The translations under genes were made by a program, and so were the position numbers. Positions 3,730 to 55,085 of a stretch of 55,103 bases of DNA are shown piece by piece. The DNA lies in contig JAZDOD010000009.1 of assembly GCA_043798995.1 (NCBI GenBank), forward strand, positions 80,015 through 135,117. The letters are read 5' to 3'. The notes beneath the pieces are model-generated. The model was given only the letters and a program-made list of their open reading frames with translations, did not search any database and was not told where the DNA came from. The stretch is from a bacterium (GTDB lineage Bacteria; Patescibacteriota; Patescibacteriia; JAACEG01; JAGUWE01). Numbering within the stretch: position 1 is the first letter of the stretch; every line of letters begins with the position of its first letter.

Positions 3730-4875
3730 CTATCGTAAATTCAGCCTTTCTTTGATTGTTTTAATTGCTCTTTTGGCAATTTTCTGATAATGGAAATTTT
3801 TCAGAGCATGTTCGTAGGCATTTTTGCCCATTTCTTCTCTTAATTTGTCATTGGTCAGAAGTTCCTTGGTATATTTGGCTAAATCAGGAACACTGGCCCG
3901 ATAAGCAAAGATTTTTGGCTCGGCAAACTTTATTTTATGAGTGGCGTCAAAACCCATGCTTTCATGGGCCCATTCCTCGGTTAATTTTACGGTTTCGCCA
4001 ACCTCAGCCAAAAAACCGGTTTTATTATGGATAATAGTATCGGCCGGACCGCCGGTGTTAATTGAAATAACCGGTCGTCGGCAGGCTTGAGCTTCAAGCT
4101 GAACCATGCCAAATCCTTCAATTCGCGACGGTGCGGCATAAATGTCGCAAGCAGAGAGAAGATAGCTCATAAAATCATGCGAGTACATGCCGGTAAGATA
4201 AATGATTTTGTTTTTATCCAGTCCCAATTCTTCAATTAAGCGTTCTTCTTCGCGATGATGGGCTTCGGCGCAATCACTTTCAGAGGCCTTGCAGACATAT
4301 TTCCAGGCCTTAAAATCTTTATCAATAACCGCTAAAGATCTAATCATTTCCTGCGCGCCCTTAGAAGTGACGTCGCCGCCAATAGTCAAAATCATTTTTT
4401 CTTCCGGACCTATGCCTAACATTTCCCGAAGGCGCTGAATCTTGGGATCGGATTGAGGGATTGGCTTGATTTCTTCCGGATCAAAGCCGATGGGCAGAAC
4501 TTCAAAATTTTTAGTGTTTACTCCATCTCGAGCATAAGTTTCCTTGACCCATTGGCTGGTTGCAAAAACCAAAGGCAAATCACTTATTATCTGATGATAG
4601 TTGGCTACCCAGCCATTGGCCACAAACCAGGGCACAGGCGAAATACCATTTTTTTGCGGACTCAAAACAATGTCCGGCACATAAGTCCAACAGCCAATGC
4701 CAATGGCAATATCTGGCTGATAAGCGCTGAAAAGCCATTGTTTTTGAAAACTTGGCCCGTGATGGCAGGGCATGACATCAATGCCAATTTCTCGGAGCCC
4801 GCGATAAAGCAAATGCCCCTGAATACTCAGACCATCTGGCTCCGGCGGATAGGCATAAAGGATTGCAACGCGCAT
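3730..4875 (-). CDS. Family 4 glycosyltransferase
   Basis: 381 aa. EGFGMVQLEAQACRRPVISINTGGPADTI is a GT4 E-x7-E region. Confidence 0.8.
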   Translation of the reverse strand: MRVAILYAYPPEPDGLSIQGHLLYRGLREIGIDVMPCHHGPSFQKQWLFSAYQPDIAIGIGCWTYVPDIVLSPQKNGISPVPWFVANGWVANYHQIISDLPLVFATSQWVKETYARDGVNTKNFEVLPIGFDPEEIKPIPQSDPKIQRLREMLGIGPEEKMILTIGGDVTSKGAQEMIRSLAVIDKDFKAWKYVCKASESDCAEAHHREEERLIEELGLDKNKIIYLTGMYSHDFMSYLLSACDIYAAPSRIEGFGMVQLEAQACRRPVISINTGGPADTIIHNKTGFLAEVGETVKLTEEWAHESMGFDATHKIKFAEPKIFAYRASVPDLAKYTKELLTNDKLREEMGKNAYEHALKNFHYQKIAKRAIKTIKERLNLR

Positions 4876-5605: not shown

Positions 5606-6376
5606 ATGGAAGTGATTATTACTAAAAATTATCAAAAAATGTCCGAGGTTGCTGCTTCGGTTGTGGCTAGGGCTATTGCCAAAAATAAAAAGATTGTTTT
5701 GGCCTTGCCGACCGGCAAAACACCGCGGGAATTGTACCGCTTTTTAATTAAAGCTTATCGGCGCGGCAGTATTAGTTTTAAAAAAGCAGTTGCTTTTAAT
5801 TTAGATGAATACATCGGTTTAAGTCCGGCGGATAAAGCCAGTTATCATTTTTATATGAAAGAATTTTTTTTTAAGTTTATTGATATAAAATCTAAAAATA
5901 TTTTTATTCCCGATGGCCAAGCCCGCCTGCCAAGGCCTGGAGCCAAGGCGACTGGCGGGCAGGCTAAAAATTTAGCCGCCGAATGCCGCCGTTACGAGAG
6001 AGAAATTAAAAAGCAAAATGGTCTTGATTTGGCAATTTTGGGTTTAGGCAAAAATGATCATCTTGGCTTTAACGAGCCGGGCTCAAGTTTTAATTCCAAA
6101 ACCAGAGTAGTTAAATTATCAGAAGCGACGAGAAAAACCAACGCTAAATTTTTTAAAGGCAGAAAAATTCCCAACTTTGCTATTACTATGGGACTTAAAA
6201 CAATTTTTTCCGCCAAAAAGATAATCCTTCTGGCTTCGGGCAGGGAAAAAGCTGAAGCGGTTAAAAAAGCTCTAAAAGCGCCGATTAGTCCTCAAATTCC
6301 AGCTTCAATTTTGCGTCAACACCCCAATGTGATTTTTATTCTTGACCGCGCCGCGGCTTTCAAAATAAAAAAATAA
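5606..6376 (+). CDS. nagB: Glucosamine-6-phosphate deaminase (carries a 14-codon repeat-derived insertion)
   Basis: LALPTGKTP, DEYIGL and GLGKNDHLGFNEPGS motifs. The extra segment ARLPRPGAKATGGQ is encoded by the GC-rich element at 5922-5963. Confidence 0.85.
   Translation: MEVIITKNYQKMSEVAASVVARAIAKNKKIVLALPTGKTPRELYRFLIKAYRRGSISFKKAVAFNLDEYIGLSPADKASYHFYMKEFFFKFIDIKSKNIFIPDGQARLPRPGAKATGGQAKNLAAECRRYEREIKKQNGLDLAILGLGKNDHLGFNEPGSSFNSKTRVVKLSEATRKTNAKFFKGRKIPNFAITMGLKTIFSAKKIILLASGREKAEAVKKALKAPISPQIPASILRQHPNVIFILDRAAAFKIKK
5922..5963 (+). repeat. Family B GC-rich element, 42-nt form, in frame inside nagB
   Basis: The sequence is cccgcctgccaaggcctggagccaaggcgactggcgggcagg. It is 42/42 identical to the reverse complement of 15086-15127 in topA, so both copies have the same orientation relative to the coding strand. 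Confidence 0.9.
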
Positions 6377-6756: not shown

Positions 6757-8121
6757 TTAATCCGGCAAACGCGGATTTAAAGAAATATCCCTATCACTAA
6801 ATAATTCTAATACAGTATTATCTTTTTGAAGGTCAATGGCTGTTAAAATTCTCGAAACTTTATTTGCGTCATTACTAGTATCATTAAAAACTATGTATCG
6901 TCCTCTTTGGGAAAAATAAACTTCTCCTTGTAAATAATGATTTCCCGTTACAGTGTATCTAAAATCAATTTGTCCATTGTCTAAATTTAAAGTGTAAATA
7001 TTATTATGACCACTTAAAACAAGAGTCTTTTCATCTTCCGACCAATTGTTTATCCGAGATAATCCATCAGCACTCAAAATAGATGAGATGTCAAAGTTTT
7101 TTTGTGGAGTAGAAAGATTGTCACTGCTATATAGCATCAAATCCCACTTCTTGTTTTCGTTTTTGTTAATAATTGCAAATTTAGATAATGATGGACTAAA
7201 AGATACATCTATAGGATCTTTCTTGTTATTTTTATCTTCAAAATCACCTATTTGTTTTATCTTGTCATTGTTAGCATCGTAAATATATATCGGCCAAAAT
7301 TTAAACCTCCATTCAGCTGGTACCGCAATTGAATAAAATCCAGCCAATATATTTTTATTAGAATCCCAGTTGGACCATATATATTTGTTGTCGCCAAAGG
7401 AGTAATATTCCTCATAATCATTATACCATTCGTCTTTTTTCCCGACCGCTTTATAAGCAGAATCAAGAATAGTGGTTGGAGAACAATTTTTTATTCTTGT
7501 ATCACATATGAATTCTTCTGCTTTCAAGATTGGAGGAGAATCTATATAATTATTTGGTTTTTTTGTCTCATCATAGGTAATAGAAACAATTATAGCTTTA
7601 TCATGGTCTTCTGATAAGAGATAGGTGCTATTTGATATGCTGATTTGATTATTTTTTGTTTCTTCTGGCAACCCAGTATATTCAGAAAGATCATAAAAAT
7701 TAGTTTCGATTTTTTTTAATTCCTTTGTATCTATATTCAGTATGTAATCATCGCCTTCAATATTGCACAAAATTGTATCTTGAATTTGTGGCATTACCAA
7801 TTTACCTTCACCAAGAGGATTATATCCGTTTAATATTTCGGCCCCATCCAAGTAGCCATCATTATCTGAATCAGAATTATTTGGGTTTGTTCCGTATTTT
7901 GTTTCGTCATTATCAGTAAGACCATCATTATCGGAATCTTTGACAACTGATTCACTTTTTGTATCGGTTGGTCGGGAGTTTTTCATCCAAAGCCAAGCAC
8001 CTCCTCCTATGGCTAGCAGAACGACTAATATGACAATCAAAATAATTCCCGTCTTGGACTTTTTCACAGGCTCATAATTTGTATCTTGATAGTCACTTGG
8101 GTCTATTTGTTGGTTAGGCAT
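6757..8121 (-). CDS. Membrane-anchored thrombospondin-type-3-repeat protein with a large C-terminal extracytoplasmic domain
   Basis: N-terminal TM helix (GIILIVILVVLLAIGGGAWLW), then DSDNDGLTDNDE...NPNNSDSDNDGYLDGAEILNGYNPLG. Confidence 0.6.
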   Translation of the reverse strand: MPNQQIDPSDYQDTNYEPVKKSKTGIILIVILVVLLAIGGGAWLWMKNSRPTDTKSESVVKDSDNDGLTDNDETKYGTNPNNSDSDNDGYLDGAEILNGYNPLGEGKLVMPQIQDTILCNIEGDDYILNIDTKELKKIETNFYDLSEYTGLPEETKNNQISISNSTYLLSEDHDKAIIVSITYDETKKPNNYIDSPPILKAEEFICDTRIKNCSPTTILDSAYKAVGKKDEWYNDYEEYYSFGDNKYIWSNWDSNKNILAGFYSIAVPAEWRFKFWPIYIYDANNDKIKQIGDFEDKNNKKDPIDVSFSPSLSKFAIINKNENKKWDLMLYSSDNLSTPQKNFDISSILSADGLSRINNWSEDEKTLVLSGHNNIYTLNLDNGQIDFRYTVTGNHYLQGEVYFSQRGRYIVFNDTSNDANKVSRILTAIDLQKDNTVLELFSDRDISLNPRLPD

Positions 8122-8171
8122 AAGGTTATTATTAAGATTTAGTTGTTTTAATTATAGCAAAAATTCAATTA

Positions 8172-8190
8172 TAAAAAACCCCTTGCGGGT
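8172..8190 (-). terminator. Intrinsic terminator candidate downstream of 8284-9291
   Basis: The - strand reads ACCC-GCAAG-GGGT followed by TTTTTT. The stem is short (4 bp). Confidence 0.35.
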
Positions 8191-8283
8191 ATTTTTTAGA
8201 TTCGCCGGGTCAAAAAAAATATCCTGGATAATATGAGCGTTTTTTAAAATAAAATTAGTTGAGGATTTCAAAGAGTTGAATTT

Positions 8284-9291
8284 TTATTTATCTTTTCTTG
8301 TGTCAATAATCGAGACATTGGAAAAAATTTCAGAGAGTTTATCCATTTGCTTTATTACCGAATCAGAGGTGGTATTTTTAATAATAAGTTCTACTTTATC
8401 GCCCTGAATTATTTTTTTGGTAAATTCTATATCTAATTTTAATGATAAACATCGTAGATCTTCGAGGGAACATTTAAAGCGCTCTTTAATTTTTTGTTCA
8501 ACTAAATTGCGTGACTCATAGTTTCCGAAATAAGCTTTAAAGACGGTGTCTTCATTAAGGGCTAATTCTTTCATAACCAAATGGGTGGCTGCTCGACACC
8601 AACCATAATAATCACCCTCCTCTTCTCTGCTGGGGATAACTGAATTATCGTTCACTGAAGTTTCTTCCCACATTACTGTTACTCCTTCATTAAACCATTT
8701 ATTTCCCACTGATATTATCCGTCCTTCTTTACTTTTTTCTAAACGAGTAAAACCAGTCGCTGATTCATGGGGCCTAGTGCTTAGCGTATGACCAACTTCG
8801 TGTGCCAGTAATTTATTAGGAGTATTAAGTTCTATATAAATAGCGTTAAGGTCTTGCGAATATGAATTAAGAGTGGGAGTAAATTTTGAAGGTTGTAAAC
8901 CATAGTGAAGAAAATTATCAGCGATGATTATCTTATAATCTCTGGCCTTGGTTAAATACTCCTTTTTTCTGGTGAGGGCGAAACAATCATCAGCTTGTTG
9001 TTTAAATAATAGCATTTTTTCAGCAGCGCTTCTCTGATAGTTTTCAATTATTTTTTGAGCATAAAGTTCTAACTCTTTGGCAAAAGGTTGACCGCCAGTT
9101 AAATTATATTTTTGGCGGTAGCGATTCTCAGAAATTGGATTTTCTCTAACTTTTTCTAAAATAATTTCAATAGCCTTTTGACTTAATTCTTCTAAACTTA
9201 AACCAGAAAAAGTTGAAATGTCTTGCATTTCAATATGTGGTTTGTACCCTTCTTTTATTTCCGGCATTTCAAATTGTTCATGATTTTTCAT
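8284..9291 (-). CDS. Hypothetical protein with HExxH zinc-metallopeptidase motif
   Basis: 335-aa ORF containing LLAHEVGHTL. I recognised no other motifs. Confidence 0.45.
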   Translation of the reverse strand: MKNHEQFEMPEIKEGYKPHIEMQDISTFSGLSLEELSQKAIEIILEKVRENPISENRYRQKYNLTGGQPFAKELELYAQKIIENYQRSAAEKMLLFKQQADDCFALTRKKEYLTKARDYKIIIADNFLHYGLQPSKFTPTLNSYSQDLNAIYIELNTPNKLLAHEVGHTLSTRPHESATGFTRLEKSKEGRIISVGNKWFNEGVTVMWEETSVNDNSVIPSREEEGDYYGWCRAATHLVMKELALNEDTVFKAYFGNYESRNLVEQKIKERFKCSLEDLRCLSLKLDIEFTKKIIQGDKVELIIKNTTSDSVIKQMDKLSEIFSNVSIIDTRKDK

Positions 9292-9558: not shown

Positions 9559-9638
9559 ATTTTTCTTAATCTTAAATAAAATTGGCTAAATTGTCAAAAG
9601 ACGAGTAATAAGGTATAATATTAGTAGTCAATTTTTTT

Positions 9639-9770
9639 GACATTTGACATTTGCCTGCCCGCCAATTGCCAATGAGTCACTCGGTGATTTTAACAGATAT
9701 TTTAATAAAAAGCTTGATAAAATTTGGAAGCTTTCTTAATTGGCTTTGGCAGGCGGGAGCTTTGAGATTT
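9639..9770. repeat. Family B element, long intergenic form (reverse orientation relative to the nagB copy)
   Basis: GACATTTGACATTTG-CCTGCCCGCCAATTGCC, then ~74 nt of AT-rich filling, then AATTGGCTTTGGCAGGCGGG-AGCTTTG. Both ends match the ends of the 42-nt form (15/17 and 16/17 nt). Confidence 0.8.
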
Positions 9771-13144: not shown

Positions 13145-15436
13145 CTATTTTTCTTCTTGTGGTTTTTGCCAGGAAACATAATCGCATTTGGGATAGTTTG
13201 AACAGCCGTAGAAGAAACGGCCGCGTTTGCTGCGCCGGCGGACTACTATTCCCTCCTGGCATTTGGGGCATTTGATTTCCTCGCCCTTTTCATCAGTAAT
13301 TTTAAAATTATTATTTAAATGTTTAGTATTTTTGCAATCGGGATAACCAGAGCAGGCCAAAAATTTGCCAAAACGGCCCGTTTTAACAACCATTGGCTGG
13401 CCGCACTTTTCGCAAATAACATTGGTTTCTTCATTATTTTCATTTTGAGATTTTTTCTCGCCATTTTCACCGGCCCTGGCTAAATCTTGGGTATATTTGC
13501 AGCGCGGAAAATCAGAGCAGGCCAAAAATTTGCCAAAACGGCTCATTCTGGTAACTAAAGGCGAGCCGCATTTGGGACATTTTTCCTCAGTCACCTCACC
13601 CAGGATTTTTTCTTTGGAAAGCGTCTTTTCTTTTTGGGTTAAATTTTTCTTAAAGGGCTCATAGAAATCAGCAATCACCGGCTGCCAGGCAGTTTCTCCC
13701 TGGGCAATTTTATCAAAGTCATCTTCCATTTTAGCCGTAAACTGGTAGTCAACTATTTGAGAAAAATGTTCAGTTAAAAGATCGGTCACTAAGAAAGCAA
13801 CCTCGGTTGGTTTTAAACGGCCGGTTTCTTTTAGGATATAACCGCGATCCTGAATGGTGCTGATAATCGGCGCGTAAGTTGAAGGCCGGCCAATGCCGTA
13901 ACTTTCCAATTTTTTAATGAGTCCCGCTTCTGAATAGCGAGCCGGTGGCTGGGTGAAATGCTGATTATTTTTTATCTCAAGAAGAAGCAAGTCGTCGCCC
14001 GCTTTAACTTGGGGTAGAATCGTTTCACTGGTGGCAGTTTGATAAATTTTTAAAAAGCCCTTAAATTTGATTATCTGGCCATTAGCCAGAAAAATGTAAG
14101 GCGTCTTTTGGGCCTCAATTTCCAAAGCGGTCTGATCAAAAAAAGCATCGGTCATCTGGGAGGCGACTGTCTTTTGCCAGATTAATTGATAGAGTTTAGC
14201 TTGGTTTTTATCTAAATAATTTTTGATTTTTTCCGGCTCCCGGAAAACACTGGTTGGCCTGATTGCTTCATGGGCTTCTTGGGCTAGTTTGGCTTTGGTT
14301 TTATAATATTTTTTGCCCCTGAAGTAGCCGGATTCAAAATTATTTTTAAGGTAACTCGCAACCTCGTCTAAAAATTTTTCTGCCAGATTCAGCGAGTCGG
14401 TTCGCATATAAGTAATTAAACCAACAGAGCCCTCCTCTCCTAATTCAATGCCTTCATAAAGTTGCTGGGCTAACCTCATTGTTTGTTTGGCCGAGAAACC
14501 AAAACGGCGGTTGGCTTCCTGCTGCAGAGTGGAGGTGATAAAAGGCGGCGGGCTTTTGCGGATAACTTCTTTTTTTCTGACATTTAAAACTTGATACGAA
14601 GCATTTTTTAAGTTTTTTAAAATTTCCTGGGACTGAGTCTCATTTTTTATTTCTAACTTATCAATTTTCTGACCGTTGATTTTATCAAGATGCGCGGAAA
14701 AAGATTCTCCGCTGGCTTTTTGGGTTTTGCCATCAAGCGGATCAAAAATAGCGTCAATGGTCCAATATTCATCTTTTTTAAAGGCCTGGATTTCTTTTTC
14801 TCTTTCAACGATTAATTTGACCGCCACCGATTGGACGCGGCCGGCTGAAAGTTTTTTGGTGACTTTACGCCAAAGAAAAGGCGAGAGTTCATAGCCGACT
14901 AAGCGGTCTAAAATGCGCCGGGCTTGCTGGGAATCAACTAAATTCAAATTAAGATCGCGCGGTTCTTTTAAGGCATTGTCAATCGCTTCTTTGGTAATTT
15001 CATGAAAAACAATACGTTCTACCTTACTTTTGACTTTTGCCTGCCCCGTAGCTCCGCCAGTTGGCGGATGCTTCGGGGACTTTTGCCTGCCCGCCAGTCG
15101 CCTTGGCTCCAGGCCTTGGCAGGCGGGACTTTTGACCTCATTCAAGCCCAAGGCTTGGGTGAGGTGCCAGGCAATAGCTTCGCCTTCGCGATCTTCATCG
15201 GTGGCTAGAATTATTTTATCGGCTGATTTCAGTTGAGCCTTTAAATCTTTGACAACTTTTTTAGCTTTGCCGGGGATAATATAATGAGGCGCAAAATTGT
15301 TTTCAATCTCAATACCCATTTTGTTTTTAGGCAAATCTCGGACATGGCCGTAGGAAGAAGCGACCTGATAATTTTTATCCAAAAATTTGGCAATAGTTTT
15401 GGCTTTGGTTGGCGATTCAACGATAACGAGATTCAT
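13145..15436 (-). CDS. topA: DNA topoisomerase I with C-terminal zinc ribbons (carries a 34-codon repeat-derived insertion)
   Basis: TOPRIM start MNLVIVESPTKAKTI and DEDREGEAIAWH. Several CPKCG/CEKCG zinc ribbons. The extra segment SPACQGLEPRRLAGRQKSPKHPPTGGATGQAKVK lies between ...GLNEVK and SKVERIVFHEITK. Confidence 0.9.
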   Translation of the reverse strand: MNLVIVESPTKAKTIAKFLDKNYQVASSYGHVRDLPKNKMGIEIENNFAPHYIIPGKAKKVVKDLKAQLKSADKIILATDEDREGEAIAWHLTQALGLNEVKSPACQGLEPRRLAGRQKSPKHPPTGGATGQAKVKSKVERIVFHEITKEAIDNALKEPRDLNLNLVDSQQARRILDRLVGYELSPFLWRKVTKKLSAGRVQSVAVKLIVEREKEIQAFKKDEYWTIDAIFDPLDGKTQKASGESFSAHLDKINGQKIDKLEIKNETQSQEILKNLKNASYQVLNVRKKEVIRKSPPPFITSTLQQEANRRFGFSAKQTMRLAQQLYEGIELGEEGSVGLITYMRTDSLNLAEKFLDEVASYLKNNFESGYFRGKKYYKTKAKLAQEAHEAIRPTSVFREPEKIKNYLDKNQAKLYQLIWQKTVASQMTDAFFDQTALEIEAQKTPYIFLANGQIIKFKGFLKIYQTATSETILPQVKAGDDLLLLEIKNNQHFTQPPARYSEAGLIKKLESYGIGRPSTYAPIISTIQDRGYILKETGRLKPTEVAFLVTDLLTEHFSQIVDYQFTAKMEDDFDKIAQGETAWQPVIADFYEPFKKNLTQKEKTLSKEKILGEVTEEKCPKCGSPLVTRMSRFGKFLACSDFPRCKYTQDLARAGENGEKKSQNENNEETNVICEKCGQPMVVKTGRFGKFLACSGYPDCKNTKHLNNNFKITDEKGEEIKCPKCQEGIVVRRRSKRGRFFYGCSNYPKCDYVSWQKPQEEK
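15026..15134 (-). repeat. Composite GC-rich insertion in topA: [ACTTTTG]x2 - 39-nt hairpin - [ACTTTTG] - 42-nt family B element - [ACTTTTG]
   Basis: 15040-15078 is CCTGCC-CCGTAGC-TCCGCCA-GT-TGGCGGA-TGCTT-CGGGG. 15086-15127 is the exact reverse complement of 5922-5963. The net added length is 102 nt (34 codons). Confidence 0.9.
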
Positions 15437-15459
15437 AATTTAGAATTTAAAATTTAAAA

Positions 15460-16551
15460 TTAACGGGCAAGAACATAATTCATTCCCCCTAAATTTCTGA
15501 CCAAACCCTTAAGTTCCATCAGCGCGAGGGTGGAATTAATTTGAGCTGGGGGTAGTTTACTAAGCTGAATAATTTTGTCAATATGGAGAGGATTTTTACT
15601 GAGCAGTTCAATAATATTTTTTTCTTCCTCGTTTTCAGCAATGATTTTTTGATTTTCTAAAAAGGCGGTTGCCTGTTTAAGATTTAAACTTTCCAGAATA
15701 TCAGAGGCAGAGGTTGTGGGTTTGGCCCCCAGTTTAATTAAATTATTAGCGCCCTGGGAATTTCGGCTGTAAATATTGCCGGGTACGGCAAAAACGTCAC
15801 GATTTTGCTCCAGAGCAAAATTGGCCGTAATTAAGGTGCCGCTTTTTTCTGGCGCTTCAATAACCAGCACCCCCAAAGAAAGTCCGGAAATCAGACGATT
15901 GCGGGCCGGAAAATGCTGCTTAAGTGGCATGGTGCCCGGCGGATATTCAGAAAGAAGAAGACCCCCCTTTTCAATTATTTTTTTAGCTAAAAAGCGGTTG
16001 CTGCTTGGATAAATATTTTGCTTATCAAGACCTGAACCTAAAACAGCAATGGTTTTGCCGCCTGCTTCCAGGGCGGTCTGGTGAGCTAAGGCATCAATGC
16101 CTAAAGCTAAGCCACTGACAATTGTTAGGCCATTTTGGACCAAGTCCCAGGTCATTTCTCTTGCCACCTGCTGGCCGTAACTGGTTGGTTTTCTGGTGCC
16201 GACCACGGCCAGAGAAAATTCATTGGCAACTTTTAAATCACCGGAGAAAAAAAGAAGAGGTGGCGGTTGATAAATTTCCCGAAGCAGTTTGGGGTAATCC
16301 GGCTCTAAAATAGTTATAATTTCCAAACCTTCTTTTTTAAGTTCCTCCCATTCCCTATTAGGATTAATTTCTTTTCGTTTAATCAAAAGATTTTCCAGAG
16401 CTTCCTGATCCAAACCGGCTTCTCTCAGTGCTCCGGCTTCAGCCTGCCAGGCGGTTTTTAAATCGGGAAAAGCTCGCAGTAATTTTTTTAATTTTTGCGG
16501 CCCGATTTTATTGATTTTGGCAAAAGTAAGCCAATATTTTTTATCATCCAT
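15460..16551 (-). CDS. dprA: DNA-processing protein DprA (Smf)
   Basis: VVGTRKPTSYG and GLALGIDALAHQ motifs plus a C-terminal wHTH. ATG 16551 is preferred over GTG 16569, which lies inside an inverted repeat. Confidence 0.85.
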   Translation of the reverse strand: MDDKKYWLTFAKINKIGPQKLKKLLRAFPDLKTAWQAEAGALREAGLDQEALENLLIKRKEINPNREWEELKKEGLEIITILEPDYPKLLREIYQPPPLLFFSGDLKVANEFSLAVVGTRKPTSYGQQVAREMTWDLVQNGLTIVSGLALGIDALAHQTALEAGGKTIAVLGSGLDKQNIYPSSNRFLAKKIIEKGGLLLSEYPPGTMPLKQHFPARNRLISGLSLGVLVIEAPEKSGTLITANFALEQNRDVFAVPGNIYSRNSQGANNLIKLGAKPTTSASDILESLNLKQATAFLENQKIIAENEEEKNIIELLSKNPLHIDKIIQLSKLPPAQINSTLALMELKGLVRNLGGMNYVLAR

Positions 16552-20264: not shown

Positions 20265-20436
20265 AGGGTGTCTAAAAGTATATTACAACAAAAAATTATA
20301 ATTGCCAATTTTTTTAAGGGTTAACAAAGGGTTTAAACCCTTTTTGCTCTTTCTTATTTTTTATGTTAAAATAAATTTTAATAGAGATTAGTTTAAGTTT
20401 ACCATGTTGGTAAGATATCTGACAGCGGCATTTCTT

Positions 20437-20543
20437 TACCCCCACACCCAAAAAGCCCCATTTCTCAAGGCAGGAATGAAGGGTGTGAGAAAAATAAATT
20501 CCATAGAAAAGCCCTGCCATTCATGATGGAGTGTGGGGGTTTA
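20437..20543. repeat. Family C repeat, two tandem units closed by AAACCCCCACAC / GTGTGGGGGTTT
   Basis: Unit 1 is CCCACACCC...GGGTGTGAG (20441-20489). Unit 2 is AAAGCCCTGCCATTCATGATGGAGTGTGGGGG (20507-20539). The region explains the spurious ORF 20314-20520. Confidence 0.7.
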
Positions 20544-20579
20544 CTTTGTGCCAAATTGGGCACATAGCTCAGCTGGTTA

Positions 20580-20623
20580 CCCGCCCGACTCGCTGCAGAC
20601 GCAGTTGCGTCGAAGCGGGCGGG
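20580..20623 (+). repeat. 44-nt hairpin block in the D loop (between positions 21 and 22) of the outer tRNA-Val
   Basis: CCCGCCCG-ACTCGC-TGC-AGAC-GCA-GTTGCGTCGAAG-CGGGCGGG, with an 8-bp perfect closing stem. Confidence 0.8.
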
Positions 20624-20639
20624 GAGCGCTACATTCACA

Positions 20640-20743
20640 CCCGCCTGCCTTGGCCGTTTAGCTCAGCTGGTTAGAGCGCTTCGTTCACATCGAAGAGGTC
20701 GAAGGTTCAAATCCTTCAACGGTCATAGTTTTAGGCGGGCAGG
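20640..20743 (+). repeat. 104-nt family B element in the anticodon loop of the outer tRNA-Val, carrying a complete tRNA
   Basis: CCCGCCTGCC-TT-[tRNA 20652-20725]-TAGTTTTA-GGCGGGCAGG. The termini pair over 10 positions with one C.A mismatch and one U.G wobble. Confidence 0.85.
20652..20725 (+). tRNA. tRNA-Val (anticodon CAC), nested
   Basis: GGCCGTT-TA-GCTC-AGCTGGTTA-GAGC-G-CTTCG-TTCACAT-CGAAG-AGGTC-GAAGG-TTCAAAT-CCTTC-AACGGTC-A. Confidence 0.95.
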
Positions 20744-20761
20744 TTGTAGAGGTCTCTGGTT

Positions 20762-20792
20762 TGACCCTGCGGGTCATCTCCCGTAGGGATGA
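20762..20792 (+). repeat. 31-nt double mini-hairpin block in the T loop (between positions 55 and 56) of the outer tRNA-Val
   Basis: TGACCC-TGC-GGGTCA followed by TCTCCC-GTA-GGGATGA. Removing it restores the T loop TTCAAGT. Confidence 0.7.
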
Positions 20793-20878
20793 CAAGTCCA
20801 GATGTGCCCATAAAGATGTTTGGCACTATTTAAGAATTTCATACTTAAAAGATAAAAATCAAATCAATCTTTAGCTGG

Positions 20879-25390: not shown

Positions 25391-26452
25391 ATGTTTGAAG
25401 AAAACGTTCCAAATAATTTGCCAACCGGCAATCAGCCCGAAGACCCGTTTGCTAAAATTGAGTCAGAAAAAGCAATTTTTACCGCGCCTGCTTCCTCACC
25501 GCCGCCACCACCGACATCGCTGGCGGGCGAGGAAATTCATACCATGCCGGAAAAATTTCTAACTCAGCCACTCAAAAAAGTATCAACCACTGTTATTTTA
25601 ATAATTGTTTTACTTTTAGTTTTAATTGCGGCCGGTGTCGGCGTATTTTTTTTCCGTGACAAAATCAGCGGTTTCTTAGCTAGTCGCTTTGGCGGCAACG
25701 TGGCTTTAGAAGTTAATTCCACTCCGAGCAATCTCAATAATACTGCCTTGGTTAATGAGACCAACGAAAATACTAATAATACTAATACCAACGAAAATAC
25801 CAACCTTAACGAAAACACTAACAACGAAACAAACACTAATTTAAATACCAATACCGAAGTAACTCAGCAATTTTTAGATACTATGCTTTCCAGCACCGAT
25901 ACGGACAATGATTTATTGACTGACGCAGAAGAGACTATTTATCAAACCAATCCCAACCAAGCCGACAGCGATCAAGACGGTTATTTAGACGGTCAAGAGG
26001 TAGTGAATTTTTATGATCCGGCAGCCGCTCAAGTTAAATTAGCTAATTCCACGGCGGTTCATAAATACACTAATTCTGATTATGGCTATTCCGTTTATTA
26101 TCCAGCAACTTGGCAAGCAAGAAACCTGGGCGAGGGTAATCAGGAAGTTATCTTTGATTCTGGCGTCGGAGAGTTTATCGGTATAAGCGTTCAGGAAAAT
26201 CCCAATGGACTTTCGGCTTTAGATTGGTACTCACAAAGTTTGACTGATTTTAACTCTTACGAAATTCAGAAAGTTAATTTTGGTACAATTCAAGCAATTA
26301 AGAGTTTAGATGGCTTCAGTCTTTATTTTAGCGGTACCAACGGCGGTAAAAATTACATTTACACCTTAACTTATAATATCGGCAACAAAACCGAAGTTGC
26401 CTATAAAACTACCTTTCAGATGATGCAAAAAAGCTTTGAATTTATCCCGTAA
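25391..26452 (+). CDS. Membrane-anchored thrombospondin-type-3-repeat protein with Asn/Thr-rich linker
   Basis: TM helix, an NENTNNTNTNENTN low-complexity stretch, and DTDNDLLTDAEE...DSDQDGYLDGQE. Confidence 0.6.
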   Translation: MFEENVPNNLPTGNQPEDPFAKIESEKAIFTAPASSPPPPPTSLAGEEIHTMPEKFLTQPLKKVSTTVILIIVLLLVLIAAGVGVFFFRDKISGFLASRFGGNVALEVNSTPSNLNNTALVNETNENTNNTNTNENTNLNENTNNETNTNLNTNTEVTQQFLDTMLSSTDTDNDLLTDAEETIYQTNPNQADSDQDGYLDGQEVVNFYDPAAAQVKLANSTAVHKYTNSDYGYSVYYPATWQARNLGEGNQEVIFDSGVGEFIGISVQENPNGLSALDWYSQSLTDFNSYEIQKVNFGTIQAIKSLDGFSLYFSGTNGGKNYIYTLTYNIGNKTEVAYKTTFQMMQKSFEFIP

Positions 26453-40110: not shown

Positions 40111-40213
40111 GTCATTCCGCACTTGCTTGTCCCGCCATGGGCGGTGGATGCGGAATCTATATCCTAAAATAAATTAAGGATGACACTTGGATTCCCGCTT
40201 TCGCGGGAATGAC
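40111..40213. repeat. Family A composite hairpin repeat, copy 2
   Basis: GTCATTCCGCA...TGCGGAATC, then a spacer, then GGATTCCCGC-TTTC-GCGGGAATGAC. It creates the false TTG-start extension MDSRFRGND. Confidence 0.8.
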
Positions 40214-42439: not shown

Positions 42440-42548
42440 AATTTCCAATTTCCAATTTCCAATGAAATTTCTAATTTTTTAATGCTAAAAGTTTTGTTAA
42501 TTTAATCATTGGACATTTATTAGAAATTAGAAATTGGGAATTAGGAAT
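42440..42548. repeat. Inverted arrays of AT-rich heptads: (AATTTCC)3 ... (TAGAAAT)2 TGGGAAT TAGGAAT
   Basis: Left array at 42440-42460 (continuing degenerately to 42472); right array at 42521-42548. The right array is the reverse-complement type of the left. Confidence 0.7.
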
Positions 42549-42557
42549 TTTAAAGTT

Positions 42558-44100: not shown

Positions 44101-44210
44101 GTCATTCTGAACGAAGTGAAGAATCTCGCGGGAGTGTTAGCGACCCGCGAACACGGGTCAGCCTACGGCTTCCCGTGAGATTGCTTCGTCGCTTTACTCC
44201 TCGCAATGAC
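44101..44210. repeat. Family A-related composite repeat, copy 4 (GTCATTCTGAACGAAGTGAAGAATCTC ... CTCGCAATGAC)
   Basis: Four stacked hairpins between the two ComEC-derived ORFs; outer termini GTCATT/AATGAC. Confidence 0.75.
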
Positions 44211-45170: not shown

Positions 45171-45560
45171 ATGCCTGAGGTCAAAGCAAAAATTTTAATC
45201 ATTGAGGATGATAAGATGCTTTCGGATATGTATAGCTTAAAGTTTAATGAGGAAGGCTACCAAGCTATTCAGGCCTTTACCGGTTCGGAAGGAGTTGAAA
45301 AAACCAAAAGCGAGAAGCCGGACATTATTTTATTGGATATAATTTTGCCGCAAATGGACGGTTTTCAAGTGATGGAAGAAATTAAAAAAGATAAAAATTT
45401 AGTCAATATCCCGATTCTTTTTTTGACTAATCTAAGACAGGAAGAAGATGTGAAAAAGGGCACGGCCTTAGGCGCGGTTGGCTATTTGGTTAAAGCCAGC
45501 TATACCCCGGCCCAGGTTTTAGATAAAGTTAAAGAAATTTTAAAACAGTATAAAAAATAG
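45171..45560 (+). CDS. Single-domain response regulator (receiver only)
   Basis: ILIIEDD, the phospho-acceptor context IILLDIILPQMDG, and a conserved K (YLVKA). Confidence 0.8.
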   Translation: MPEVKAKILIIEDDKMLSDMYSLKFNEEGYQAIQAFTGSEGVEKTKSEKPDIILLDIILPQMDGFQVMEEIKKDKNLVNIPILFLTNLRQEEDVKKGTALGAVGYLVKASYTPAQVLDKVKEILKQYKK

Positions 45561-45596
45561 AATTAAAAATTTAGAATTAAGAATCAAGAATTTATG

Positions 45597-53256: not shown

Positions 53257-54687
53257 ATGGTTTTCTCAATAATCCAAAAATCGCAAATTGAAGACACAAA
53301 GCGGCTAGATGCTGAATATTATCAGCCGGAGTATTTAGAAGTGGAGAAAAAACTCAAATCAATTAATACTAAAACGATTGGCGAAATATCAGATAGTGTT
53401 GTAAATTTCGGCGCATACTCGTTATGTAATTATATCCAATGGCAAGATGGTGGAGTGCCTTATTTAAATGTTCAAGATATCAAAGATGGTTATATTGATT
53501 TTGACGATACAAAATTTATTGGCGAAAAAGTAAACGAGATTTTAAAAAAATCAGAAGTAAGCGAAGGACAGGTTATTCTAACGATGGCTGGGACTATCGG
53601 AAATGCCGCGGTAGCACATAAAATTCCTTTAAAGGTAAATTCAAATCAGGCAACCGCAAAGATTACATTAAAAAAAGAAATTTCTCCGTATTTTTTAACG
53701 GCATTTTTAGGTTCATATTATGGTAAAAATCAAATAATTCGTGAAATTGTTAGTAGCGTTCAGCCAAATATATTCTTATTTCAGATTAAAAATTTTAAAG
53801 TTCCAATTGCAACACAAAAAGAACAAAAAGAAATTGAAAAAATCTATATTCACGGATTGGAGGAATTAGAGAACTCTAAATTATTTTATCGCCAAGCCGA
53901 GAATTCATTTTTTAAACAATTAAATTTACAAAATTTTAAAAATGATGGTTTATTGTCCATATCTATAAATTTGGCCGATATAAAAATAGTCAATCGTTTT
54001 GACGCAGAATATTTTAATTCACCTAGCAATAAAATGCTGGCGATAATCAATAAAGGTAAAATTGCCAAACTTAGCGACTTGGTGGAAATGACTAAGGGCG
54101 TTGAGCCCGGGGCGGAAGCGTATCAAGAGCCCTCCGACGCTCCCACCGGCGCTGAAGCTATGGCGGGCAAGGAAACTATGGAGGGTAAAAAGGGGAAGTT
54201 ATTTATCCGCGTCAGCAGTATTTCCAAAGACGGAATTATTAATAAAGACCAAAAATATATAAGCGAAGATTTATATAATGAATATAAAAAAGATTATCAG
54301 CCACAGGTTGGAGAAATATTATTAACTAAAGACGCCAGCCCGGGGATTGCTTGTTTAGTGCGTGAACCGATAGAAGGAATTGTCGCCAGCGGTGTTATGC
54401 GATTAAAAATTAAAGAAAAAATTAATTTGGAATATTTGACACTGGTATTAAATTCTATTGTCGGCCGCCTGCAAGCCGAACGGGATGCCGGCGGGTCAAT
54501 TATCGTCCATTGGAAACCGGAGCAAATAAAAAATTTAGTCGTTCCAATTTTACCCGTTTCAACGCAAAATAAAATTGGCGATTTAATATCGCAATCTTAT
54601 CAGGCGCGCAAAAAAGCGAAAGAATTATTAGAAGAAGCAAAATTAAAGGTTGAGGAAATGATAGTAAATAATCAATCATTAAAATGA
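53257..54687 (+). CDS. hsdS: Restriction-modification specificity subunit (HsdS-type, two TRDs)
   Basis: RLDAEYYQPEY / RFDAEYFNSP repeat starts, and central and C-terminal conserved helices (ATQKEQKEIEKI / STQNKIGDLISQ). Confidence 0.8.
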   Translation: MVFSIIQKSQIEDTKRLDAEYYQPEYLEVEKKLKSINTKTIGEISDSVVNFGAYSLCNYIQWQDGGVPYLNVQDIKDGYIDFDDTKFIGEKVNEILKKSEVSEGQVILTMAGTIGNAAVAHKIPLKVNSNQATAKITLKKEISPYFLTAFLGSYYGKNQIIREIVSSVQPNIFLFQIKNFKVPIATQKEQKEIEKIYIHGLEELENSKLFYRQAENSFFKQLNLQNFKNDGLLSISINLADIKIVNRFDAEYFNSPSNKMLAIINKGKIAKLSDLVEMTKGVEPGAEAYQEPSDAPTGAEAMAGKETMEGKKGKLFIRVSSISKDGIINKDQKYISEDLYNEYKKDYQPQVGEILLTKDASPGIACLVREPIEGIVASGVMRLKIKEKINLEYLTLVLNSIVGRLQAERDAGGSIIVHWKPEQIKNLVVPILPVSTQNKIGDLISQSYQARKKAKELLEEAKLKVEEMIVNNQSLK

Positions 54688-54839: not shown

Positions 54840-54844
54840 GTTAA

Positions 54845-54881
54845 TCGCAACCGACATGTACTGCCATTATACTATAGCCCA
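54845..54881 (-). other. tRNA-like 5' fragment (acceptor strand + D arm + anticodon-loop-like TTGCG), truncated at the end of the RM island
   Basis: The - strand reads TGGGCTA-TA-GTAT-AATGGCA-GTAC-A-TGTCG-GTTGCGA. I found no matching 3' half. Confidence 0.4.
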
Positions 54882-54916: not shown

Positions 54917-55024
54917 CGCCCGACTGCCTTGACTATCGGGGTGCGGAGAATTGAACTCCGGCCACATGCACCCCATGCACGCGTACTACCGTTATACTAC
55001 ACCCCGGCAGTCAAGGCGGGCGGG
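54917..55024 (-). repeat. GC clamp enclosing tRNA-Pro (arms CCCGCCCGCCTTGACTGC / TAGTCAAGGCAGTCGGGCG)
   Basis: The arms at 55024-55007 and 54935-54917 pair as GCCTTGACT/AGTCAAGGC, a 4-nt bulge, then CGCCC/GGGCG. The CCCGCCCG terminus is shared with 20580-20623. Confidence 0.8.
54936..55006 (-). tRNA. tRNA-Pro (anticodon GGG)
   Basis: CGGGGTG-TA-GTAT-AACGGTA-GTAC-G-CGTGC-ATGGGGT-GCATG-TGGC-CGGAG-TTCAATT-CTCCG-CACCCCG-A. Confidence 0.9.
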
Positions 55025-55047
55025 CACTACCGTTACGCTACACCCCG
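55025..55047 (-). other. tRNA-like 5' fragment duplicating the acceptor strand + D arm of tRNA-Pro
   Basis: CGGGGTGTAGCGTAACGGTAGTG(C) versus CGGGGTGTAGTATAACGGTAGTAC is 21/24 identical, with compensatory changes at D-stem pair 11:24. Confidence 0.5.
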
Positions 55048-55052
55048 AAATT

Positions 55053-55085
55053 ATTATTCATTATTCATTATTCATTATTCATTAT
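55053..55085. repeat. Tandem heptad repeat (ATTATTC) x4.7
   Basis: attattc repeated head to tail from 55053. Confidence 0.85.

Follow-up and report, generated by a model that had tools for sequence, protein, structure and literature searches.

The gene nagB in a 55,103-nt stretch of patescibacterial DNA (contig JAZDOD010000009.1; the whole stretch is hereafter called the window) is interrupted by a GC-rich block of 42 nt, designated E1 (CCCGCCTGCCAAGGCCTGGAGCCAAGGCGACTGGCGGGCAGG), that recurs without a mismatch inside topA, and the locus thus raises the question of how one short sequence came to lie within two coding regions. These are the only two exact copies in the window, and the 42-mer was matched by none of 100 dinucleotide shuffles. 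E1 has a G+C content of approximately 74%, as compared with 38% for the window as a whole. An earlier note on this DNA, made from the letters alone, had reported the identity of the two copies and their common orientation relative to the mRNA, and both statements are correct: nagB and topA lie on opposite strands (Table 1), so both copies are in the sense orientation. It was also right that the encoded peptide is not what is conserved, because the two genes use different frames of E1, NagB containing (A)RLPRPGAKATGGQ and TopA PACQGLEPRRLAGR. The edges of the repeat are less sharp than had been described, since the identity between the two copies does not stop at the ends of E1 but continues for five further bases, giving 47 nt with one mismatch, and, with GC on either side, the boundary in nagB has an uncertainty of 2 nt. 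Likewise, the block described as palindromic does fold as a single strand into a hairpin, but the stem is imperfect and leaves an unpaired CAGG at its 3′ foot.

Comparison with related genes reveals that E1 is an insertion. The nearest NagB relatives (78-85% BLASTP identity, 242-244 amino acids) lack exactly 14 residues at the position of E1, and in a full-length alignment the Bacillus subtilis enzyme (PDB 2bkv) shows a gap of 14 residues there, in agreement with the claim that other NagB proteins carry no such segment. At the DNA level, the related locus L002 presents a clean empty site, GATGGCCAA|GCTAAAAAT, where the window holds 42 extra bases, and the site is also empty in a second relative, L001; beyond the 2-nt ambiguity, no target duplication is apparent. 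An AlphaFold model of the NagB protein has a mean predicted local distance difference test (pLDDT) score of 91, whereas residues 108-120 score below 50 and have no secondary structure, which places the insert in a loop between a strand and the helix formed by residues 123-136. E1 therefore most likely adds a floppy, disordered surface loop to the modeled enzyme. Two of the checks proposed in the earlier note, a search for an empty site among nagB relatives and the mapping of the insert on a structural model, thus agree with its reading of E1 as an in-frame insertion.

The copy in topA is part of a composite block in which E1 is accompanied by a second hairpin, E2, and by four CAAAAGT heptamers, neither of which had been mentioned before. 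E2 has a predicted folding energy of -14.7 kcal/mol (z = -4.6) and occurs as a single copy in all the DNA examined. The TopA orthologues, which at about 60% identity are the closest that were found, lack approximately 34 residues between the conserved EAIAWHL helix and the RIVFHEIT segment; no closer relatives were found, and hence the insertion in topA is judged at the protein level only. A few orthologues carry other, unrelated insertions at the same loop, the length of which varies, indicating that the loop is permissive. We also noted a 93-nt direct repeat in the 3′ part of topA (13316-13408 and 13481-13573, 76% identity), which, from the translation, we take to be an ordinary feature of the repeated C-terminal Cys-rich (zinc-ribbon-like) motifs. 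The insertion of the 42-nt block is thus genuine, and the block itself probably represents a small mobile element of DNA that is rich in GC and folds into a hairpin.

The earlier note had presented the element as repeated, which it is, but as a matter of two copies in one genome, whereas E1 belongs to a large family with strictly conserved ends that is distributed over many phyla. Its members share the defining ends CCCGCCTGCC...GGCGGGCAGG, after which comes a pyrimidine. When genomes, one for each species, were scanned with the pattern CCCGCCTGCCWWRGCC-N(4-34)-GGCGGGCAGG, at least 117 stretches were returned, and a scan of metagenomes for longer forms returned at least 120; both scans demanded exact ends, such that part of the apparent conservation there stems from the search pattern itself. 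Judged by record title, the genome matches derive from Patescibacteria of many classes, Chloroflexi/Dehalococcoidales, metagenome-assembled genomes (MAGs) of Delta- and Gammaproteobacteria, the Planctomycetes-Verrucomicrobia-Chlamydiae (PVC) group, WOR-3, Cloacimonadota, Planctomycetota, and others. The matched loci span 30-65% G+C, and several copies often occur in one MAG. Short forms measure 30-55 nt, with lengths of 33, 39, and 42 nt prevailing in genomes of the candidate phyla radiation (CPR). Copies that differ from E1 by one or two substitutions are present in a Yanofskybacteria MAG (L009) and in L084. One form of 32 nt, CCCGCCTGCCAAAGCCTTGTGCGGCGGGCAGG, does not differ between phyla and lies mostly between genes, and in Chloroflexi it is part of clusters of about 100 nt composed of differing hairpins. 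Copies nested within copies are frequent, as in L057, L091, L097, L185, and L178. This nesting reaches four levels, with heads recurring every 17 nt and tails every 15 nt, and includes long forms within long forms (L057 7903-8000, L185 181-381, L178 1229-1359).

Searches for a known identity of the family gave little. At gathering score, Rfam models identified nothing in the window except tRNAs, and among 18 loci a single cobalamin riboswitch, with no group I or group II intron and no ribozyme; a protein search with the six-frame peptides of the element gave no match at E <= 10; and a literature search by sequence string and by topic returned only general work on repetitive extragenic palindromic (REP) sequences and Rickettsia palindromic elements (RPEs), with no description of this family. 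Elements of this kind are thus already known, whereas this particular family, with its properties, seems to lack a description in the literature searched.

The preservation of reading frame seen in nagB and topA extends to the family. Of 15 short forms flanked on each side by open frame of at least 240 nt, every one is crossed by a single reading frame; nine lie in the sense and six in the antisense orientation, and copies of 32 nt are among them. Lengths divisible by three account for 32 of the 52 distinct short forms. The frame also continues through a few 102-nt forms, among them copies in genes that, from their translations, resemble those of aminoacyl-tRNA synthetases. Because the frame is kept in all 15 cases and in either orientation, and because excision of a 32-nt copy would break it, these data argue for translation of the element as part of the host protein rather than for its removal by splicing or bypass. 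Introns and bypass elements would be free of any such constraint on frame and would have to lie in the sense orientation.

The same ends also bound longer segments, of which the window holds two of 104 nt. Among the metagenome matches listed, the length of the long form is sharply peaked at 102 nt, with a range of 99-105. Conservation in these forms is confined to a terminal stem of 10 bp and an inner GCC/GGC stem, and the interiors of 113 sequences form 82 unrelated clusters. We considered whether the interiors might be decayed tRNAs, but a relaxed ARAGORN search found no more of these than in shuffled controls. A conserved RNA structure was likewise rejected, as only the terminal stems are predicted, with no covariation and no tRNA-like fold. 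Virtual excision of long forms restored an open reading frame (ORF) in only a few ambiguous cases.

One of the two 104-nt segments carries a complete tRNA-Val(CAC) gene and lies, together with two other hairpins, within a second tRNA-Val gene, all three loops of which are thereby interrupted (Table 1). When the three inserts are removed in silico, ARAGORN calls the outer gene as tRNA-Val(CAC), and the syntenic locus L156 (LytR, tRNA-Val, signal peptidase) contains a single uninterrupted tRNA-Val(CAC). A further element in the window, of 106 nt, carries a tRNA-Pro gene and adjoins a 23-nt duplicate of the tRNA-Pro 5′ end (55025-55047). Beyond this duplicate lies a tandem array of 4.7 copies of ATTATTC (55053-55085), and another tRNA-like 5′ half is found at about 54842-54881 on the reverse strand. 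In other loci, a tRNA-Thr(TGT) gene resides within a tRNA-Thr(TGT) gene (L161, L123, L184), and similar tRNA-in-tRNA-like arrangements occur with other families of inverted-repeat ends (L189, L162).

Two of these other end families deserve separate mention. A 100-nt element of the window (20435-20544) has the inverted ends CCCCACAC.../...GTGTGGGG and lies between direct repeats of TTTAC; its end family is present also in L130 and L218, and in L189 it carries a tRNA-Val(CAC) within the D-loop of another tRNA-Val-like gene. In L162 (reverse strand, approximately 8290-8363), a tRNA-Pro(TGG) gene lies between perfect 15-bp inverted repeats (TAGCCTGACACTTTT), which in turn sit between the halves of another tRNA-like gene with matching acceptor ends (CGGAGCA...TGCTCCGACCA).

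In our reading, the outer tRNA genes are disrupted, whereas those inside them work. That each tRNA gene is found with its own kind may reflect survivorship, as a single-copy tRNA gene would tolerate only a cassette bearing the same tRNA, and the outer tRNA-Val-like gene of L189, which is already degenerate at its 5′ end, supports this view. We tentatively raise the possibility, which at present seems doubtful, that the form of about 102 nt represents a tRNA-sized mobile cassette that can bring with it a whole tRNA gene, that enters a loop of the cognate tRNA gene and upon which the host then depends, amounting to a selfish tRNA-in-tRNA replacement. A bolder version of this idea would have the interrupted outer tRNAs still matured through a bacterial excision pathway.

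Table 1. Positions in the window of the host genes, the inserted elements, and the interrupted tRNA genes
Feature	Position	Strand	Remarks
nagB, glucosamine-6-phosphate deaminase, otherwise intact	5606-6376	+	PF01182 homologues; model mean pLDDT 91
E1, short form	5922-5963	+	Inside nagB; adds 14 amino acids, about residues 106-119; exact match, empty site in relatives
Long form, AT-rich interior, intergenic between tRNA-Leu and parA	9654-9757	-	Same ends; absent from syntenic L001
topA, bacterial topoisomerase I	13145-15436	-	Translation; PF01751/PF01131 homologues
Composite block CAAAAGT-E1-CAAAAGT-E2-CAAAAGT-CAAAAGT in topA	15026-15134	-	About 102 nt (34 amino acids) extra relative to orthologues
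E2, 39-nt hairpin CCCCGAAGC...GCTACGGGGCAGG	15040-15078	-	3′ end GGGCAGG as in E1
E1, identical copy	15086-15127	-	Inside topA; sense; reads PACQGLEPRRLAGR; segment absent from TopA orthologues
Outer tRNA-Val(CAC), three interruptions	20558-20810	+	D-loop 20580-20623, position 37/38 20640-20743, T-loop 20762-20792
Related 44-nt hairpin CCCGCCCG...CGGGCGGG	20580-20623	+	D-loop of outer tRNA-Val
Long form, interior a complete tRNA-Val(CAC) gene (20651-20726)	20640-20743	+	104 nt
31-nt GC-rich hairpin	20762-20792	+	T-loop of outer tRNA-Val
106-nt E-like element, one mismatch per end, carrying tRNA-Pro(GGG) (54936-55006)	54919-55024	-	

In about 93% of copies the element is followed by a pyrimidine, and in most CPR copies by C(T)AAA; no tetra- or pentanucleotide is common to all. 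Short direct repeats surround many copies and vary by lineage (CAAATTT, CAAAAGT, CACTTTAG, TCGAAxA). Exact 7-nt flanking repeats accompany 10 of 116 short copies, where 0.1 would be expected, and 2 of 114 long copies. The flanks of the copy at 9654-9757, ctcaaagtt[E]caaatgtcaaatg, also surround copies in other metagenomes (L181, L211, L237), implying that some flanking repeats travel with the element. Coding copies that have 7-mer arrays typically have four units (L074, L111, L064, L087, and topA), with five in L098; if three units were gained, as we presume, the insert would grow by 21 nt and the frame would be kept. That the 7-mers are an obligatory target duplication is ruled out by the empty site of nagB and by the nested copies, both of which lack one. 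Tandem arrays of A/T-rich 7-mers are also unusually common in the intergenic DNA of the window (9636-9653, 15437-15461, 42440-42463, 42519-42549, 45559-45592), and they resemble the 7-mers that flank hairpin elements in the window and in other CPR loci.

[quoted passage not shown] A small hairpin-forming element of this kind would have inserted as DNA into nagB and into topA, the latter insertion presumably being very recent because the nagB and topA copies are still identical. Insertion would require no target duplication and would frequently occur in hairpin loops, in the element's own copies, and in tRNA genes. In a gene-dense, AT-rich genome of the Patescibacteria type, copies within essential genes would survive only if they kept the frame and lay in a tolerant surface loop, after which the element would be transcribed and translated as a disordered peptide that lacks a function of its own. 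Mobilization would be performed by an enzyme encoded outside the window, most likely of a type that recognizes a folded single strand, as do the HUH/Y1 transposases of REP sequences and of the IS200/IS605 insertion sequences (ISs). The imperfect stem with its unpaired tetranucleotide, the absence of a duplication, the conserved neighboring base, and the preference for loops together create a resemblance to the IS200/IS605 elements and to REP sequences with their REP-associated tyrosine transposases (RAYTs).

Several observations weigh against this model. Neither the window nor the 1.5 Mb of fetched loci yielded a transposase or an autonomous parent with the ends of the element, and segments longer than 300 nt bounded by such ends contain ordinary host genes only. 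A tblastn search of the 1.5 Mb with IS200-like and YafM-like queries gave one IS200-like match, which is not flanked by the element. The short and long patterns had 0 matches among IMG/VR viral contigs, and BLAST searches of plasmids gave chance-level matches only. A simple REP/MITE model leaves unexplained the occurrence of identical 32-mers across phyla of 30-65% GC, the sharp length of 102 nt despite unrelated interiors, and the direct repeats and 7-mer arrays that surround many copies. Nor can the openness of the element in all six frames be counted as an adaptation to coding regions, as it is not unusual: approximately 40% of shuffled sequences share it. On the other side of the balance, the Moranbacteria MAG locus L058 encodes at 4363-4704 an IS200-like TnpA bounded by GC-rich hairpins of its own (CCTCGGGGCTTGCCCCGGGG), 2.5 kb from a 33-nt copy of the element, and HUH-type elements with GC-rich hairpins therefore do live in CPR genomes.

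An alternative in which the element spreads with no dedicated transposase, through template switching, through microhomology-mediated repair at replication forks stalled by hairpins, or through gene conversion from DNA that has been taken up from relatives, would accommodate the failure to find a transposase in the window or the 1.5 Mb of loci as well as the clean empty sites. The short direct repeats and 7-mer arrays that adjoin many copies look like the products of slippage, and dprA is present in the window. These processes would not, however, be expected to yield ends that are strictly conserved across phyla around interiors that are free to vary, a conserved pyrimidine at position +1, and repeated nesting at loop positions, all of which point to sequence-specific recognition by a protein. 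We consequently regard spread of this kind as unlikely.

It might also be proposed that the element is kept because it benefits the host, whether as an RNA hairpin that affects mRNA stability or translational pausing, as a protein-binding site in DNA, or as a source of useful peptide. Roles of this type have been assigned to REP sequences elsewhere (PMC3733652), and the core sequence is extremely conserved. Yet close relatives function without the element, which occurs in either orientation and at unrelated sites; moreover, the peptide is predicted to be disordered and, given the different frames used by its hosts, is not conserved. A beneficial function is thus a distinctly improbable reason for the presence of the element.

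A third possibility is that the hairpins are removed after transcription, through intron-like excision and religation or through ribosomal bypassing, such that the insert would be missing from the finished proteins and from the outer tRNA-Val. Gene 60 and the mitochondrial 'byp' elements provide examples of such bypassing. The clean tRNA-Val(CAC) obtained by subtraction of the three inserts would fit this proposal, as would the outer tRNA-Thr gene of L161, which likewise emerges clean; the terminal stem would bring the exon ends together, and the inserts occupy all three tRNA loops. Against it stand the preservation of frame in every coding case, including 32-nt copies whose exact excision would shift the frame, and the occurrence of both orientations relative to the gene. 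By eye, the 37/38 junction has no bulge-helix-bulge (BHB) geometry, the genome is bacterial, and no Rfam ribozyme or intron family scored at the gathering threshold. In addition, the outer tRNA-Val-like gene of L189 is degenerate, and a functional inner tRNA with the same anticodon is present every time. Removal of the element is accordingly very unlikely. Finally, that the block is an assembly or chimera artefact can hardly be credited, for although the contig is of metagenome type and hairpins can disturb assemblers, both host ORFs remain open and the family is present in hundreds of independent assemblies from projects that differ by title (GW2011, RIFCSP, NC_groundwater, UBA, MFD, binchicken).

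Other features of the window and of the fetched loci bear on the wider population of such sequences. In L093 (1533-2700), two short-form copies flank smpB, and the downstream one (2661-2700) occupies the place at which one would look for the tmRNA gene. This invites an analogy with RPEs, which are inserted in RNA genes as well, that for tmRNA among them. Two segments of the window match the ends with two mismatches, one at 25483-25531 within an ORF (25391-26452) and one at 54468-54495 within an hsdS-like ORF (53257-54687); these could be degenerate old copies or chance matches. Other GC-rich intergenic hairpins at 40117-40153 and 44127-44179 (CCGCACTTGCTTGTCCCGCCATGGGCGGTGGATGCGG; CGCGGG...CCCGCG / CACGGG...CCCGTG) may belong to additional element families. 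The ORFs between nagB and tRNA-Met (6757-9291; 454 amino acids with a TSP3 repeat, and 335 amino acids) are absent from L002 and are replaced in L001 by an ORF resembling a LAGLIDADG homing endonuclease, a variable island that adjoins tRNA genes.

Palindromic passengers carried in frame were known from Rickettsia and a few REP-rich bacteria, and they can now be placed in the candidate phyla radiation, whose genomes offer almost no intergenic room. The family is unusual in its near-invariant ends at 30-65% GC, its class of about 102 nt, its nesting, and its carriage of tRNA genes into cognate tRNA genes. If confirmed, it would serve as a marker of recent horizontal exchange among uncultured lineages, would be a source of annotation errors (spurious protein loops and missed or double tRNA calls), would account for some of the lineage-specific insertions in CPR proteins, and would provide a defined substrate in the search for a new transposase.

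Among known systems, the interrupted tRNA-Val gene invites comparison with archaeal BHB tRNA introns and split tRNAs, in which, as here, insertions in the D, anticodon, and T loops can be found in one tRNA and a GC-rich stem joins the halves. The host and its gene content are bacterial, however, the insert carries a complete second tRNA gene, and, as judged by eye, the 3′ end of the 37/38 insert has no complement to the exon bases of the anticodon loop. The mobile GC clusters, double-hairpin elements, and 'byp' elements of fungal mitochondria are similar in that GC-rich hairpins invade AT-rich genomes, including their coding regions, but these are organellar, and byps are skipped by the ribosome, whereas nothing here calls for skipping. 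The palindrome-associated transposable elements (PATEs) derived from IS200/IS605 also produce no target duplication; they insert next to a short preferred sequence, with which the pyrimidine at position +1 and the C(T)AAA of most CPR copies may be compared. Unlike them, the present ends pair with one another and there is no conserved local hairpin at each end.

MITEs, including Correia/NEMIS, ERIC, RUP, and Nezha, share with the family their non-autonomous character, a size class of about 100 nt, nested copies, and terminal inverted repeats, the 10-nt ends pairing here with one C.A mismatch and one G.T pair. They differ in that neither the empty site of nagB nor the nested copies reveal a target-site duplication of fixed length, that no parent IS with the same ends was found in the window or in the fetched loci, and that the interiors of same-length copies are unrelated. 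Like REP sequences, the family has imperfect hairpins of 20-40 nt that leave a tetranucleotide unpaired at one foot; genomes contain many copies, which cluster in intergenic DNA with other hairpins, and copies occasionally lie in frame within genes. By contrast, E1, E2, and every other member have CAGG as the unpaired tag, or CCTG when read on the opposite strand, instead of GTAG (GT[AG]G) or CGTC; no RAYT/TnpA(REP) gene was found nearby in the loci searched, many CPR copies are intragenic, and the long form and the nesting are atypical.

The closest likeness in mode of action is to RPEs, as the earlier note had proposed while assigning E1 to a different family. REP sequences and RPEs inserted in frame within genes are documented, often in genes for replication and repair (PMC3733652, PMC6006769), and RPE-4 and RPE-6 have been classed as REP sequences of the CGTC type (PMC3733652). 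Like RPEs, the present elements are short palindromic repeats that are inserted in frame, read in different frames, and located in tolerated loops (PMC3733652), with several families coexisting in one reduced genome; nagB and topA are open, and all 15 coding copies are read through. The analogy holds for the mode of action and does not extend to membership of an RPE or REP superfamily; the terminal motif CCCGCCTGCC/GGCGGGCAGG differs from the CGTC tag of RPE-4 and RPE-6 in a comparison by motif only. In contrast to RPEs, which belong to another host lineage and to one genus, the present short forms are shorter (30-55 nt) and occur as near-identical copies in many phyla, and the family includes a fixed-length form of 102 nt with a free interior as well as versions that carry tRNA genes.

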